The notes beneath the pieces were generated by a model, which was not told where the DNA came from, ran no database searches, and saw only the letters and a program-made list of their open reading frames with translations. Source: a bacterium (GTDB taxonomy: Bacteria > Myxococcota_A > Bradymonadia > UBA7976 > UBA1532). From it: a DNA stretch of 64,000 nt. Made by a program: the position numbers and the translations under genes. The stretch is taken from contig JAUHYW010000012.1 in the NCBI GenBank assembly GCA_030426085.1, forward strand, positions 84,509 through 148,508, given 5' to 3'. The first letter of the stretch is position 1, and each line of letters begins with the position of its first letter. Below are positions 1,236 through 53,492 of this stretch, piece by piece.

Positions 1236-3919
1236 TGCGCAATCGCCGGACGTCGCTGGCCCTGCTCGTGGGGGCCCTCTTCACCCCCGGCGTCGGCTGG
1301 GGCCAGACCCCCGCTGAAGAGGCGCCGCCCGCCGAAGAGGCGCCCCCCGCCGAAGAGGCGCCCCCCGCCGAAGAAGCGCCGGCCGAAGAGGCCGTCGCGC
1401 CCGCGCTGCCCGACGGCTTCGAGCCGCCGCGGCTGCTCCAGGAGGTCCAGGCGGCCTATCCCCCCGAGGCCCAGGCCGAGAAGCTCGCCGGCGACGTCGT
1501 CCTCCAGCTCACCGTCGACGAGGAGGGCGCCGTCAGCGAGGCCGCCGTCGTGCAGTCGGCCCACCCGCTGCTCGACCAGGCGGCGCTCGAGGCCGGGTTC
1601 CAGCTCGTCTTCGAGCCGGCGAAGATGAACGGCGAGCCGGTGCCGGTGCAGCTCAACTACCGCTACGGCTTCACCTACGTCGAAGAGAAGGTCGAGGTCG
1701 CCGCGCCGGTCGACGAAGAGCAGCCCACCGGCACCCTCGAAGGCCGGCTCTACGAGCGGGGCAGCGTCGACCCGCTGCCCGGGGTGCGGGTCATCCTGCG
1801 CGAGCTCGAGCTCGAGACCTTCAGCGACGCCGAGGGCCGCTTCCGCTTCGAGGCGGTGCCCGCCGGGCCGGTCATCATCGCCATCGAGGACGACGTCTAC
1901 GGCGACCTCGAAGACGAGGAGGTCATCCAGGCCGGCGAGGCGGTCGAGGTCACCTACCGGCTCGAGAAGGAGAGCTTCGGCGACCGCATCCAGGTGTTCG
2001 GCAAGCGCCCCAAGAAGGAGGTCGTGCGCCGCACCATCACCGTCGAGGAGATCCGGACCATCCCCGGCACCAACGGCGACGCGCTCGGCGTCGTGCAGAA
2101 CCTGCCCGGCGTCGCCCGGACCCCCTTCGGCCAGACCGACCTCATCCTGCGCGGCGGGGGCAACACCCAGGCCTTCCTCAACCAGCAGCCGATCCCGATC
2201 CCGTTCCACTTCGGCGGGGTGCGCTCGACGGTGGCCAGCGCGCTCATCGAGAGCATCGACGTCTACCCGGGCAACTTCGACCCGGAGTACGGCCGGGTGA
2301 GCGGAGGCATCGTCGACATCCGCCTGCGCGAGCCGCGCACCGACCGGCTGCACGGCTACGTCGAGGCCGACTTCTTCGACGCCGGGGTGCTCGTCGAGGG
2401 CCCGGTGGGCGACAACGGCGGCTTCGCCATCGCCCTGCGCCGCAGCTACTTCGACGTGCTGCTCGCCAACGCCCCCCTGCCCAGCAGCTTCAGCATCACC
2501 ACCGCGCCCCGGTGGTACGACGGGCAGATCCTCTACGAGTACAAGAAGGGCGGCCACCGCCTGCGGGCGCTGGCCTACGGGTCGAGCGACCAGTTCGAGT
2601 CGATCATCGAAGAGCCGCCCGAGCAGAACACCCTCATCCGGGGGGACGCGGTGGCCAAGCTCGAGTGGGTCGGGGGGCAGGTCGAGCACACCTGGGATCT
2701 CGACGAGACCGTGCAGCACACGCTCAACGTGGCCTACCTGCTCAGCGGCATCGAGTTCGGGGTGGGCGAGATCTTCCGGCTCGATTTCCTCTTCCACGAG
2801 CTGTACATCCGCGACACGCTGCGGGCGACGCTCGACGACGGGCTCGACCTGCGCCTGGGCATGGACGTCGTCAACCGCTGGGCCTCGATCGGGGCCCTCG
2901 GCGCGGCGACCGGCCCCCCTCGGGAAGGCGAGACCGGCGGCGGGTTCGGCTCCGACGAGACGGTCAGCATCGACTACGACGACTTCGAGGCCAACTGCGC
3001 GCTGTTCGGCGCCCTCGAGTGGAAGCTCGGCCCGGTCCTGCTCGTGCCCGGGGTGCGGTTCGACGTCTTCAGCACGATCGACGACTACCGGCTTCAGCCC
3101 CGGTTCTCGGCCCGGTGGGAGGTCACCGAAGGCACCGTGGTCAAGGCCGGCGTCGGGCGCTACGTCGAGCCGCCCGAGGGGCAGGACACCGCCCCCGGCT
3201 TCGGCAACCCGAACCTCGTCGCCGAGGACAGCCTGCACTACTCGGTGGGCTTCGAGCAGGACTTCACCGACGCGATCAACCTCGACGTGAGCGTCTACTA
3301 CAAGACCTTCGACGAGCTGGTGACCCGGGCCCAGAGCATCGACGCGGCCTCGGTCGACCCCAGCGCGGCGTTCGGGGGCACCGGGCCGTCGCTGCTCAAC
3401 CAGGGCGAGGGGCGGGCCTACGGCCTCGAGTTCCTGCTGCGGCACGACTTCAGCGACCGGGTCTTCGGCTGGATCAGCTACACCCTCCAGCGCAGCGAGC
3501 GCCGCGACCGGCCGGGCGAGGACTGGCGGCTGTTCGACTTCGACCAGACCCACAACCTGGTCCTGATCGGGCAGTACAAGCTGACCCCCAAGTGGAGCCT
3601 CGGCTTCCGGTTCCGGGTGGTCAGCGGCAACCCCGACACCCCGATCGTCGACGCGGTGTTCGACGCCAACACCGGCACCTATGTGTCGATCGCCGGCGAG
3701 GCCAACAGCACCCGCCAGCCGACGTTCAACCAGCTCGACATCCGGGTCGACCGGGAGTGGGTGTTCGACACCTGGCGCCTGATCGGCTACCTCGACCTGC
3801 GCAACGCCCTCAACGCGGCCAACGCGGCGGGCTTCCAGTACAACTACGACTACACCCAGCGCACGCGGGCCTTCGAGATCCCGATCTTCCCGTCGTTCGG
3901 CTTGAGGGGGGAGTTCTGA
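1232..3919 (+). CDS. TonB C-terminal domain fused to a TonB-dependent receptor (with carboxypeptidase-regulatory-like domain)
   Basis: Signal peptide; YPPEAQ..GDVVLQLTVDEEGAV..FEPAKMNGEPVPV (TonB_C); plug-like segment VVQNLPGV..YGRVSGGIVDI; barrel ending in GEF (terminal Phe); start overlaps the kinase stop. Confidence 0.85.
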   Translation: MMRNRRTSLALLVGALFTPGVGWGQTPAEEAPPAEEAPPAEEAPPAEEAPAEEAVAPALPDGFEPPRLLQEVQAAYPPEAQAEKLAGDVVLQLTVDEEGAVSEAAVVQSAHPLLDQAALEAGFQLVFEPAKMNGEPVPVQLNYRYGFTYVEEKVEVAAPVDEEQPTGTLEGRLYERGSVDPLPGVRVILRELELETFSDAEGRFRFEAVPAGPVIIAIEDDVYGDLEDEEVIQAGEAVEVTYRLEKESFGDRIQVFGKRPKKEVVRRTITVEEIRTIPGTNGDALGVVQNLPGVARTPFGQTDLILRGGGNTQAFLNQQPIPIPFHFGGVRSTVASALIESIDVYPGNFDPEYGRVSGGIVDIRLREPRTDRLHGYVEADFFDAGVLVEGPVGDNGGFAIALRRSYFDVLLANAPLPSSFSITTAPRWYDGQILYEYKKGGHRLRALAYGSSDQFESIIEEPPEQNTLIRGDAVAKLEWVGGQVEHTWDLDETVQHTLNVAYLLSGIEFGVGEIFRLDFLFHELYIRDTLRATLDDGLDLRLGMDVVNRWASIGALGAATGPPREGETGGGFGSDETVSIDYDDFEANCALFGALEWKLGPVLLVPGVRFDVFSTIDDYRLQPRFSARWEVTEGTVVKAGVGRYVEPPEGQDTAPGFGNPNLVAEDSLHYSVGFEQDFTDAINLDVSVYYKTFDELVTRAQSIDAASVDPSAAFGGTGPSLLNQGEGRAYGLEFLLRHDFSDRVFGWISYTLQRSERRDRPGEDWRLFDFDQTHNLVLIGQYKLTPKWSLGFRFRVVSGNPDTPIVDAVFDANTGTYVSIAGEANSTRQPTFNQLDIRVDREWVFDTWRLIGYLDLRNALNAANAAGFQYNYDYTQRTRAFEIPIFPSFGLRGEF
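1313..1392 (+). repeat. 18-bp tandem repeat encoding about four AEEAPP units (linker)
   Basis: gccgaagaggcgcccccc-type units read directly. Confidence 0.85.
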
Positions 3920-50862: not shown

Positions 50863-50881
50863 GGTCCTCCATGGGAGCGGG

Positions 50882-50905
50882 ATCCACTGATTCCCACCGG
50901 CCCCA
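50882..50905 (-). promoter_or_regulatory. Putative MraZ-binding repeats
   Basis: Minus strand TGGGG..TGGGA..TGGAT at 9-10 bp spacing just upstream of the mraZ RBS, like the phased TGGGN boxes known upstream of mraZ. Confidence 0.55.
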
Positions 50906-50978
50906 TCCTAATGCACCGGGTTCGTGAGTCAACGCCCAATTCGGATCAAAAAACGATTCGCCCGGGCCTCGCCCGATG

Positions 50979-51026
50979 GCTCTACATCTTGTGGTCGCAG
51001 CGCGTCATGGACCCAATATGTGGGTG
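50979..51026. promoter_or_regulatory. Tandem NrdR-box-like sites
   Basis: GCTCTACATCTTGTGG (50979-50994) and ACCCAATATGTGGGTG (51011-51026; reverse complement CACCCACATATTGGGT), 32 bp apart; compare consensus acaCwAtATaTwGtgt. Confidence 0.55.
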
Positions 51027-51325
51027 TCGCCAAACGCCGCCCGACGAGGCCCGCCCCACGCAACCGGTGGGATCGGGTGTGAAAAGTCGTGCGGATCCGG
51101 TGATTTGAACGCGCGTTCAGTGTGCCGACCCCGCGCACCGCGCCCCGCCGGGCGCCGAGCGCCCCGATCCGGCGCCGCGATCGGGGGCCCTCCATCGCCC
51201 GATCCGAGCCCCCCGATCCGCCGATCGCGCCCCATCCAACGCCCGATCCGCGCCGTCTGCGGCATGCCATGGAGCGTAGCCCGATCGGCGGCGTCGAGGC
51301 CCGCTCGGGGTGTGGATCGAGTGGG

Positions 51326-51385
51326 GATCCACGCCCCGATCCGCGCCGCCCGCGGCCCCCGACACCGCGGATCGGGGCGTGGATC
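51326..51385. repeat. Perfect 20-bp inverted repeat with 20-nt loop
   Basis: GATCCACGCCCCGATCCGCG (51326-51345) / CGCGGATCGGGGCGTGGATC (51366-51385). Confidence 0.9.
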
Positions 51386-51548
51386 AGCCTCGGATCACCC
51401 GCCTCCAGCCCCCGTTTCACCGCGCGGCCCGCGAGACGGTGGATCAAGGTGTGATCCGGGGGGATCGGCCGCTCGAGGCCCCGGAGCGCGGCGTCTCGCG
51501 CCCCCGATCCGGGTGGCCCGTGGGGCCCGGCCGTGCTAGATCGGACCC

Positions 51549-51821
51549 ATGAGCGACACCTCCGCGCCCGAGGCGCCCGAAGATCCCCCGCTCGCCGCGC
51601 CCGCCGATCCGGCGCTGGCCGGCGCGCTCGACGCCTTCCGCCGGGGCGACTACCGGGCCGCCGCCGAGCAGGCTCCGGCCACGGTCGACGACGCCGCCGA
51701 CGACCGGATCCACCTCTCCCGCCTCGAGCGGGCCCTGGCCTGGGAGCCCACCTTGTGGATCGCCGCCGCGGTCTGCGGCGCGGTCTGGCTGTGGGCCTTC
51801 GCCGCGGCCCAATCCTCCTGA
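51549..51821 (+). CDS. Small hypothetical protein with C-terminal TM
   Basis: 90 aa, AFRRGDYRAA helix motif, C-terminal hydrophobic segment, GC3 bias. Confidence 0.6.
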   Translation: MSDTSAPEAPEDPPLAAPADPALAGALDAFRRGDYRAAAEQAPATVDDAADDRIHLSRLERALAWEPTLWIAAAVCGAVWLWAFAAAQSS

Positions 51822-51898
51822 CATCTCTCGTAAACTGCTGATATATATGGGCTTCGCGCCGCGCGCTACCCCGCGGGACGGGCGGGGTGTCGCCCCCG

Positions 51899-51997
51899 TG
51901 TCAGCATCCGTCGCCCGCCGTTGTCAGCGGCCCGCCGACCGCCGTGTCAGCAGCCCCGCCGGGCGATTGTCAGGATGTCGCGGGGCCCGATGTCAGC
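51899..51997 (+). repeat. Five TGTCAG motifs at an exact 23-bp period
   Basis: TGTCAG starts at 51899, 51922, 51945, 51968, 51991; intervening bases not conserved. Confidence 0.9.
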
Positions 51998-52073
51998 GTC
52001 CCTCACGCGCGCGCGCGATCTATATAAGCTGTAGGACCGGGCCCCGATCGGGCCCTCTGCCCCCGAGCTGCCG

Positions 52074-53492
52074 ATGAGCCGCGAGCCGACCGACCCGCCC
52101 CCGCCGCCGCCCGATCCGACGCCCGATCGCGAGGTGCGCGGCCCGGATCATACCCGCCGGCTCACCCGCCGGGCCGAGCGCCAGTCGCAGTGGCTCGCGC
52201 TCTTCGTCGGCTTCGCCAGCGCCCTGGCGATGAGCGTGATCTGGGCCGCCGACACCCTCGACTCGGTGGCCGACGAGATCCGCACGATCACCGTCGCCGT
52301 CGCCGCCGCGGTGCTGGCCGCGGGGGTGCTGCTGGTGGTGGTCTACGCCACCCGCCACCGGCTCTTCCGCCTGCTGAGCCTGCCGACCCCCGGCACGCTG
52401 AGCGACGTCATGCTCAAGCTGCGCCGGGGCATGCAGGCGTGGACCGCCGACGATCGGCCCTCGGCGATCGAGCGGCTGTACGAGGGCGCGGCGAGCCTCG
52501 CGGCGTGGATGGCCTGGACCCGGCTGCGGGCGTGGATGCTGGCGACCCTGGTCGGCACCGCCTCGATCTTCGCCCTGCTCGTCGGCGAGGTGCTCATCCT
52601 GCGCCAGAACCGGCTGATCGAGGAGCAGAACGCCTACCTGCGCGAGCAGAACCGCAACATCCAGAGCCAGCTCCGGCTGGAGACCGAGCAGAACTATCAG
52701 GCCCGGCGCACCCGGCTGCTGGCGGCGCTCTACGATCGGGCGGCCTGCCGCACTCCGCCATGCGCCCTCGTCTCGAGCTTGCGGGCTCGCTCCGACGCCG
52801 CCCGAGCGTTCACCGAGATCGAGCTGGGCCGCCGGGCCGACCTCGTGGGCACCACCGCCGGCGAGCTGTGCGCCACCGGCGCGGCGGCCCACCCCCGGCT
52901 CGACCTGCGCCACCTCGACCTGTCCCCGATCGCCGGCCGGGGTGAGGACGCGCCGCCGATGGAGGCCGCCCTGCCCCGGTGGACCGCCTGCGGGGCCGAT
53001 CTGCGCCACGCCGATCTGACGGCGGTGGTGCTGGCCGACGCCGACCTGCGCCGGGCCGACCTCGGCCGGTCGACGCTGACCGGGGCCGACCTGAGCCGGG
53101 CCGACCTGCGCCGGGCCGACCTGACCGGGGCCCGGCTGGCCGACGCGGGCCTGCGGGGCGCGGCGCTGGCCGGGGCCCGGCTCGATCAGGCGTGGCTGCG
53201 GGGGGCCGATCTGTCGCCGGCCGGGGAGGGGGGCGCCCGGCCGACCGATCTGAGCGACGCTCACCTGCGCCGGGCGACGCTGACCGGGGCCGACCTGAGC
53301 CGGGCGATCCTGGGGGGGGCCGATCTGACGGGCAGCGATCTGACCGACGCCGACCTCTCGGGGGCCGACCTGACCGGCGCCCGCCTCGACGACAGCGCCC
53401 GCCGGGGGGTGAAGTGGAGCGGCGCGACCTGCCCCGACGGCTCGCCGGCGCCGGGCTCGTGCGAGGGCCGCCTGCGCCCGGCCGGGCCATGA
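52074..53492 (+). CDS. Membrane protein with C-terminal pentapeptide repeats
   Basis: About 3 TM segments, coiled coil (QNRLIEEQN..EQN), many A(D/R)LxG pentapeptides, W.GATCPDG end. Confidence 0.85.
   Translation: MSREPTDPPPPPPDPTPDREVRGPDHTRRLTRRAERQSQWLALFVGFASALAMSVIWAADTLDSVADEIRTITVAVAAAVLAAGVLLVVVYATRHRLFRLLSLPTPGTLSDVMLKLRRGMQAWTADDRPSAIERLYEGAASLAAWMAWTRLRAWMLATLVGTASIFALLVGEVLILRQNRLIEEQNAYLREQNRNIQSQLRLETEQNYQARRTRLLAALYDRAACRTPPCALVSSLRARSDAARAFTEIELGRRADLVGTTAGELCATGAAAHPRLDLRHLDLSPIAGRGEDAPPMEAALPRWTACGADLRHADLTAVVLADADLRRADLGRSTLTGADLSRADLRRADLTGARLADAGLRGAALAGARLDQAWLRGADLSPAGEGGARPTDLSDAHLRRATLTGADLSRAILGGADLTGSDLTDADLSGADLTGARLDDSARRGVKWSGATCPDGSPAPGSCEGRLRPAGP

Follow-up and report, generated by a model that had tools for sequence, protein, structure and literature searches.

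A 23-bp-phased TGTCAG array as a tentative lineage-specific operator upstream of a membrane pentapeptide-repeat gene

In the 64,000-nucleotide stretch of bacterial DNA analysed here (the window), five copies of TGTCAG, spaced exactly 23 bp apart and all in one orientation, precede a gene for a membrane protein with pentapeptide repeats. The array is unique in its genome, its core and phase are conserved in one species of the same genus, and promoter-like sequences flank it. Our preferred reading, which we hold tentatively and at slightly less than even confidence, is that of a lineage-specific cis-regulatory operator array for a DNA-binding protein not encoded beside it. An initial annotation of this DNA had proposed a cooperative protein-binding scaffold, in the form of iteron-like sites, a transposon-end-like array or an operator for the gene at 52074. 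A scaffold of this kind remains the best available explanation, and the operator fits best of the three options, given the location of the array in the leader or promoter region, the uniform orientation of its motifs and its co-occurrence with the gene; the iteron and transposon-end forms are without support.

Features of the locus, by position in the window:
51549..51821, + strand: gene for a 90-aa protein with a C-terminal hydrophobic helix (GC3 0.93; conserved in the congener, G001)
51818..51823, + strand: CTGACA, putative -35 box of promoter P1, a 5/6 match to TTGACA (sequence; G001 counterpart)
51839..51847, + strand: TGATATATA, putative extended -10 (TGn) and -10 hexamer TATATA of P1 (sequence; G001 counterpart)
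51876..51898, + strand: degenerate unit 0, with GGACGG at the core position and an off-phase TGTC at 51888 (G001 alignment, unit table)
51899..52013, + strand: five 23-bp units, each opening with TGTCAG (sequence read, genome chain scans, unit table)
52001..52026, + strand: CCTCA(CG)6-ATC-TATATA block, with (CG)6 at 52006-52017 and TATATA at 52021-52026 (G001 alignment)
52040..52055, + strand: GC-rich palindrome GGCCCCGATCGGGCCC (sequence, G001 alignment)
52074..53492, + strand: gene for a 472-aa membrane protein with C-terminal pentapeptide repeats (Pfam Pentapeptide, E 1e-30; GC3 0.95)

The array is unique in its genome

TGTCAG begins on the + strand at 51899, 51922, 51945, 51968 and 51991, and AT-rich patches lie at 51840-51848 (GATATATAT) and 52017-52028 (GATCTATATAAG). 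On re-reading of the sequence, the coordinates first given for the five motifs, for CTGACA and for the AT-rich patches were all correct. Both strands of the window together hold nine copies of TGTCAG, compared with 17.5 expected from shuffles of the whole window, and six of the nine fall within the 180-bp stretch 51818-51996. The source genome (G000; 10.1 Mb, 73.6% GC, 178 contigs) has 838 copies on its two strands, yet only one chain of three or more at 23 bp, namely the array at 51899. No other chain of at least four motifs at this period appeared when up to one mismatch was allowed. The entire genome has 19 TATATA positions, two of which flank the array, in agreement with the suggestion that the bracketing islands are rare. 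Motif densities would put the chance expectation for the array at ~1e-15. The array is non-random and chance is excluded as its source.

All hexamers were scanned at periods of 12-40 bp, multiples of 3 excepted, for core-only arrays of at least four copies. The few arrays listed were inspected, and all but the 51899 array were whole-unit repeats. The intergenic gap that holds the array is 252 bp long and non-coding, with a GC content by codon phase of 0.70/0.81/0.73 and no codon periodicity. Together with a period and interspecies indels that are not multiples of 3, these values indicate that the array is not coding.

The array lies beside a division and cell-wall cluster

The 90-aa protein encoded upstream of the array matched no Pfam family. 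The N-terminal 300 aa of the 472-aa protein encoded downstream are 81-82% identical to the G001 orthologue. Farther upstream, on the opposite strand, lies a division and cell-wall cluster that runs from mraZ, rsmH, a PBP gene and murE on to ftsQ and ftsZ, and farther downstream is a threonine-dehydratase-like gene (a PALP/ACT enzyme). Pfam assigned the flanking ORFs to MraZ, RsmH, pentapeptide repeats, PALP/ACT, HAD and division-cluster families. The small gene and the pentapeptide-repeat gene constitute a genus-specific insertion between mraZ and the threonine-dehydratase-like gene. MraZ, whose gene is ~1 kb from the array, is the sole DNA-binding protein encoded nearby. The remark that no cognate protein is evident next to the array therefore holds, the neighbours being MraZ, RsmH, the 90-aa membrane protein, the pentapeptide-repeat protein and the threonine-dehydratase-like enzyme.

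Two further features of this locus were noted. Residues 27-42 of the 472-aa protein (52152-52199) form an arginine-rich segment, TRRLTRRAERQSQW, directly before the first membrane helix. Pfam matches the segment, below threshold, to N36, the RNA-binding peptide of lambda N (E 0.0015, 18.8 bits versus a cut-off of 25); a positively charged tail beside the membrane might give such a match by coincidence. Upstream of mraZ, 686 bp of non-coding DNA (50863-51548) carry the densest GTGGATC/GATCCAC cluster of the genome, with six copies in 600 bp where the next-best cluster has four. Within it, direct repeats with a GATC core, 10-11 bp apart, lie at 51066-51126 and 51438-51466 and are conserved in G001. 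These GTGGATC-type repeats are candidate MraZ boxes; they are also similar to DnaA boxes of the TGATCCACA type. A tandem repeat of 22 bp built on a CCGATCC core occupies 51173-51254, between mraZ and the small gene, in 3.7 copies, and the corresponding region of G001 (L005:1259-1380) has five to six 21-bp units. Arrays with a period of about two helical turns seem to be common in these intergenic regions.

Core and phase are conserved in one congener

A DNA search of 41 relatives found one genome of the same genus (G001, 11.4 Mb) with a syntenic match, at 68% identity. There, four TGTCAG motifs begin at L005:1808, 1831, 1854 and 1877, exactly 23 bp apart and in the same syntenic place, and the whole G001 genome holds no 23-bp TGTCAG pair beyond this array. 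The search for three or more phased motifs that had been recommended for this genome and its relatives thus showed phase and synteny to be kept in G001, with no other array in G000. In the alignment, units 1-3 of G000 pair with units 2-4 of G001, and the degenerate unit 0 of G000 pairs with the first perfect unit of G001, while units 4 and 5 of G000 have no perfect partner. This pairing, with its unpaired units, suggests that the array grows and shrinks by complete units. The lineage-specific units (4 and 5 in G000, 1 in G001) have unrelated spacers, perfect cores and perfect register.

The array was present in 2 of 113 genomes of the class (G000 and G001) and was not found in the other 111. 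Likewise, among the mraZ-upstream regions of the family it was present at 2 of 23 loci, again those of G000 and G001; these counts follow the dropping of three fragmentary or secondary matches (L162, L164 and L165), and five of the loci read had less than 900 bp of flank. Close orthologues of the 472-aa protein (82% identity) were confined to the same two of 28 family genomes, so that array and downstream gene co-occur. A 32%-identical homologue in G016 is without the array, and G408 encodes a partial homologue (43% identity over ~100 residues). A near-identical strain, represented by run contigs X4 and X5, differed at 13 positions in 1201 bp; it has four intergenic SNPs, none of them in a core, a comparison without statistical power. 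The contig X9, from a more distant relative, does not cover 51751-52078. Core conservation rests on two species and this one near-identical strain.

Wider searches covered metagenome and other contigs. A pattern scan for three TGTCAG motifs at 23 bp gave at least 119 loci, most of which were judged by eye to be whole-unit tandem repeats in unrelated phyla; among the matches listed, L116, a G001 contig, was alone in being homologous to the array. In metagenome contigs, 597 pattern matches came from a protein scan, and not one was confirmed. The conserved 18-mer of the second TATATA block had 54 metagenome matches, none with TGTCAG within 300 bp upstream.

The core is invariant and the spacers diverge

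Across the five units of G000 and four of G001, the TGTCAG core is identical in 9/9 units, or 54/54 positions. Beyond the core, columns 7-14 of the nine-unit table carry a weak consensus, TGTCAGCAKCCsTC, and columns 15-23 are near background. The extended consensus of the unit, TGTCAGCAKCC, is weaker than the core. Some units also have a weak secondary GTC ~10-12 bp past the core (columns 12-15). Mean pairwise spacer identity is 0.41 versus 0.30 for random 16-mers, a value reached or exceeded in a fraction of 0.017. Tandem Repeats Finder (TRF) detected a repeat in units 1-3 with a period of 23/24, 2.8-2.9 copies, 77-80% matches and 8-11% indels, whereas units 4 and 5 share the core alone with the other units.

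These data qualify the initial view that the spacers are unrelated, there being a weak consensus in columns 7-14 and a TRF repeat in units 1-3. They also make the statement that the array is not tandem-repeat slippage doubtful as a claim about origin. The TRF repeat, the weak consensus and the spacer identity of 0.41 together render an origin by tandem duplication likely. A 23-bp tandem duplication was probably the starting point of the array, selection later holding the core while the spacers drifted. Retention of a core amid drifting spacers is the pattern that selection on a short recognition sequence would give, and the TGTCAG core appears to be under such selection. An inverted repeat that brackets the array (51860-51880 and 51997-52017) was considered and rejected; at 71% complementarity it is unremarkable in GC-rich DNA, and the fold z-score of the leader is not significant.

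A candidate promoter precedes the array

Upstream of the array, G000 has the layout CTGACA-N18-TG-A-TATATA, which we term P1. In G001, CTGACA at L005:1728-1733 is followed by N18 and then by TG-A-TATCAA (TGATATCAA). CTGACA and the start of the first perfect unit downstream of it are 81 bp apart in G000 and 80 bp apart in G001. P1 combines the elements of a sigma-70-type promoter: a -35 near TTGACA, a spacer of 16-18 bp, a -10 near TATAAT and the optional TGn. A tRNA gene on G000 contig C89 is preceded by TTGACA-N17-TATATA, and the pattern TGACA-N16-18-TAT[AC][AT][AT] has five sites in the genome, all five non-coding-like and one of them before a tRNA gene, compared with none for a reversed control. 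On sequence grounds, TATATA is a genuine -10 hexamer in the source organism. P1 was missed by a generic consensus promoter scan, the last base of the P1 -10 hexamer being A.

CTGACA, which overlaps the stop codon TGA (51819-51821) of the 90-aa gene, had been described as an inverted copy of TGTCAG. The hexamer is indeed present at 51818-51823, but with TATATA usable as a -10 in this organism and in the layout above, which is kept in G001, it is better read as the -35 box of P1. P1 looks like a near-consensus sigma-70-type promoter and is a strong candidate. Its predicted start, near 51854, would place the array at ~+45 to +143 of a ~220-nt leader of the pentapeptide-repeat gene.

A second TATATA follows the array within the block 52001-52026, the best-conserved intergenic block, which is 25/26 identical to G001 versus 68% for the region. 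Seventeen bp upstream of this TATATA is GTCCCT in G000 and CGGCCT in G001, with no recognisable -35. Possible roles for the block are a -35-less -10 box (P2) or an element acting in RNA or translation. The second TATATA lies 30 bp past the last perfect TGTCAG in G000 and 97 bp past it in G001, so a fixed activator position is not conserved. The (CG)6 tract at 52006-52017 adjoins the second TATATA on its upstream side; as speculation, such an alternating tract could form Z-DNA and act as a supercoiling-sensitive element. Between the second TATATA and the start codon, the palindrome GGCCCCGATCGGGCCC sits in a ~38-bp stretch that is absent from G001.

The array resembles several known systems in layout

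In layout the array resembles both response-regulator direct-repeat operators and iterons, yet it fails membership tests for each. OmpR/PhoB-type boxes are direct repeats 10-11 bp apart, and LytTR-type sites are 9-bp repeats 21-22 bp apart. Like response-regulator operators, the array has short same-orientation cores at a fixed distance, a position in a promoter or leader region and poorly conserved spacers; unlike OmpR/PhoB and LytTR sites, it has a 23-bp period, five full units and no adjacent response-regulator gene. The hexamer repeats at one helical turn and the nearby regulator or regulon that characterize OmpR/PhoB-type operators were not found. A literature search for TGTCAG and TGTCA motifs yielded nothing relevant, and no published box matching the TGTCAG consensus was found.

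Plasmid iteron origins such as RK2 oriV have about five direct repeats at 22-23 bp beside AT-rich and GC-rich tracts. The array is similar in its number of direct repeats, their spacing and its AT-rich and GC-rich neighbours, but differs from RK2 oriV in having no initiator gene, tiny AT tracts and a core of 6-12 bp, and in being chromosomal, syntenic and single-copy. Among the flanking ORFs there is no Rep gene, and the locus has neither 17-22 bp iterons nor an AT-rich unwinding element of tens of bp; the conserved core spans 6 bp and extends weakly to ~12-14 bp. The hallmarks of a transposon end are likewise missing: no transposase gene was found in the ORFs examined, there is no inverted counterpart of the array, and the array is single-copy in G000 and G001.

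MraZ boxes are spaced ~10 bp apart. One study describes them in the mraZ promoter, upstream of division gene clusters (PMC8475190). The array shares with MraZ boxes direct repeats near mraZ, but it lies ~1 kb from mraZ, beyond another gene, and has a 23-bp period. The GTGGATC-type repeats at 51066-51126 and 51438-51466 are better MraZ-box candidates than the array.

A final resemblance is to ECF41 promoters, whose signature is given as TGTCACA-n16(+/-1)-CGTC, with -10 variants TGTC (in Table 5) and TGTT (Wecke et al. 2012, PMC3426412). In that signature, TGTCA opens the 7-mer and a GTC-containing tetramer lies exactly 23 bp on, toward the gene, just as in the array. The array departs from ECF41 promoters in having G rather than C at position 6, five iterations, and neither a linked ECF41 sigma nor the usual targets (PMC3426412).

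An operator array is the preferred, tentative explanation

We infer binding of the array by a protein, and with it the kind of protein and the sign of regulation, along the following lines. A single sequence-specific protein would bind the five same-orientation sites, with TGTCAG as the core, and would fill them cooperatively. The bound protein might block or throttle transcription from P1, possibly also touching the -35 box CTGACA; alternatively or additionally, it might help RNA polymerase at the second TATATA, which has no -35. Either way, the array would set the level of the downstream pentapeptide-repeat gene.

Several observations count against an operator. A single-target regulator is usually encoded next to its target, and no DNA-binding gene lies beside the array except mraZ, ~1 kb away. 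At 23 bp, or 2.19 helical turns, successive sites would not lie on one helix face. No second class of sites was found in the genome: a regulon search of G000 found no other 23-bp TGTCAG pairs or clusters and no preferred palindromic or inverted spacing, and a genome search for TGTCAG with YGTC at +22 to +24 gave no clear signal. Nor was TGTCAG clearly enriched upstream of genes, a mild non-coding excess being shared with other AT-containing hexamers. Conservation, finally, is thin, extending to two species and a strain.

Among the alternatives, an RNA-level element is unlikely without being negligible. In this case an RNA-binding protein would recognise the five UGUCAG motifs, carried either by the ~220-nt leader or by a distinct small RNA, and would control translation, stability or termination. 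The P1 candidate is placed so that the whole array would be transcribed as the sense strand, all motifs are oriented as the gene, and the arginine-rich N-terminus of the 472-aa protein has its sub-threshold lambda N match. Against this, the predicted leader has a fold z-score of +0.35 in G000, where 125/200 shuffles fold as well, and -1.94 in G001, and the two minimum-free-energy structures do not place the motifs in hairpin loops with any consistency. Neither a fold beyond that of shuffles nor a curated family marks the leader as a structured non-coding RNA, Rfam having given nothing above thresholds and sub-threshold matches to eukaryotic families only. No bacterial protein is known to us that recognises UGUCAG in RNA. 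Slightly less likely is a functionless, decaying 23-bp tandem repeat whose identical hexamers are a remnant of recent duplication or gene conversion. The 23/24-bp repeat that TRF detects in units 1-3, the residual spacer similarity, the copy number of five in G000 and four in G001, and the whole-unit intergenic repeats of 21-23 bp found elsewhere (23 bp in five copies at C165:43871, 22 bp at 51173-51254, and 21 bp in five to six copies in G001) are what such decay would leave. It is harder to reconcile with 54/54 identical core positions in DNA that is 68% identical between species and has near-random 3' spacer columns, with lineage-specific units that combine unrelated spacers and perfect cores in register, or with the position of the array as the sole core-only array of at least four copies and non-multiple-of-3 period in the genome-wide scan.

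Because the ECF41 signature has the same 23-bp geometry, adjacent units could also form nested promoters, with TGTCAG(C) as a -35 and the TGTC of the next unit as its -10 (7 + 16 = 23 bp), so that five units would make four promoters toward the gene. We consider this improbable. The published ECF41 spacing equals the period exactly and the orientation is toward the gene; the unit matches the ECF41 -35 at 5/7 positions and its -10, TGTC, is a listed variant (PMC3426412). The genome encodes at least 40 ECF-type sigma factors, one with ECF41 architecture (r2, r4_2 and a SnoaL_2-like tail). However, position 6 of the -35 is G in 9/9 units and C in the ECF41 signature (PMC3426412), and the array is beside neither the ECF41 sigma gene, which is on contig C40, nor a usual target (decarboxylase, oxidoreductase or epimerase). 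None of 47 sigma-gene upstream regions had TGTCA followed by YGTY at 22-24 bp, and YGTC lay at +23 from non-coding TGTCAG at nine sites, with 1-10 at other distances and no peak. Somewhat more improbable again is the specific design in which each TGTCAG doubles as a -35 and as the -10 of the preceding promoter, tandem duplication having built a self-expanding ladder of four. The least credible alternative is a scaffold of mobile-element type, whether replication iterons, a partition centromere or a transposase-binding end, which we regard as very improbable. Five direct repeats at about two helical turns beside AT-rich and GC-rich tracts do resemble iteron origins, and the two genes flanking the array are a genus-specific insertion. 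Yet the surrounding ORFs examined include no Rep, Par, transposase or integrase gene, the AT islands span 7-9 bp, and the conserved core is 6-12 bp rather than 17-22 bp. The array is moreover single-copy in G000 and G001, has no matching second end, is syntenic between housekeeping genes, and lies at a point where the GC skew of the contig does not switch. On the same grounds, the initial annotation's options of iterons and a transposon end lack support: no Rep or transposase gene, short islands, a single copy and synteny.

Returning to the operator array, a protein that read it would define a recognition motif that is new, together with an operator of unusual design, two helical turns in period and conserved in the core only. 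It would also open a way to study how the lineage-specific membrane pentapeptide-repeat protein encoded beside the cell-division cluster is regulated. The locus would in addition be a clean example of a tandem duplication decaying until the functional core alone survives. The element is probably an ordinary kind of regulatory device confined to one genus, which limits its wider importance.

Other repeats and motifs

Other loci came to light in these searches. An intergenic whole-unit 23-bp tandem repeat, CAACCCGACCACGAACTCGCCAG, occurs in five copies at G000 contig C165:43871-43985. On the 8.5-kb G000 contig C178, at 3165-3490, seven copies of GAAGCGTGTCAACCATCTGTAG at an irregular spacing of 16-122 bp have an iteron-like look. 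On C40, at ~132.6-133.7 kb (L223:1300-2340), a TGTCACC-N16-CGTA match lies 100 bp past the ECF41-type sigma gene and immediately in front of a Ser/Thr kinase ORF. We considered this match as a local ECF41 promoter and set it aside, since the Ser/Thr kinase ORF is not a typical ECF41 target.

Actinobacterial arrays of TGTCAGTGG..CGACA at 23 bp were likewise considered as homologues of the TGTCAG array and were not treated as such because of their palindromic units and mixed gene contexts. They comprise 3-4 units with a 23-bp period at L051:1101-1152 and 2501-2590 and at L027, L061, L063, L080 and L112. These arrays may represent an undescribed operator family. At L051, two oppositely oriented TGTCAGTGG arrays flank toxin-antitoxin-like and PadR-like genes.
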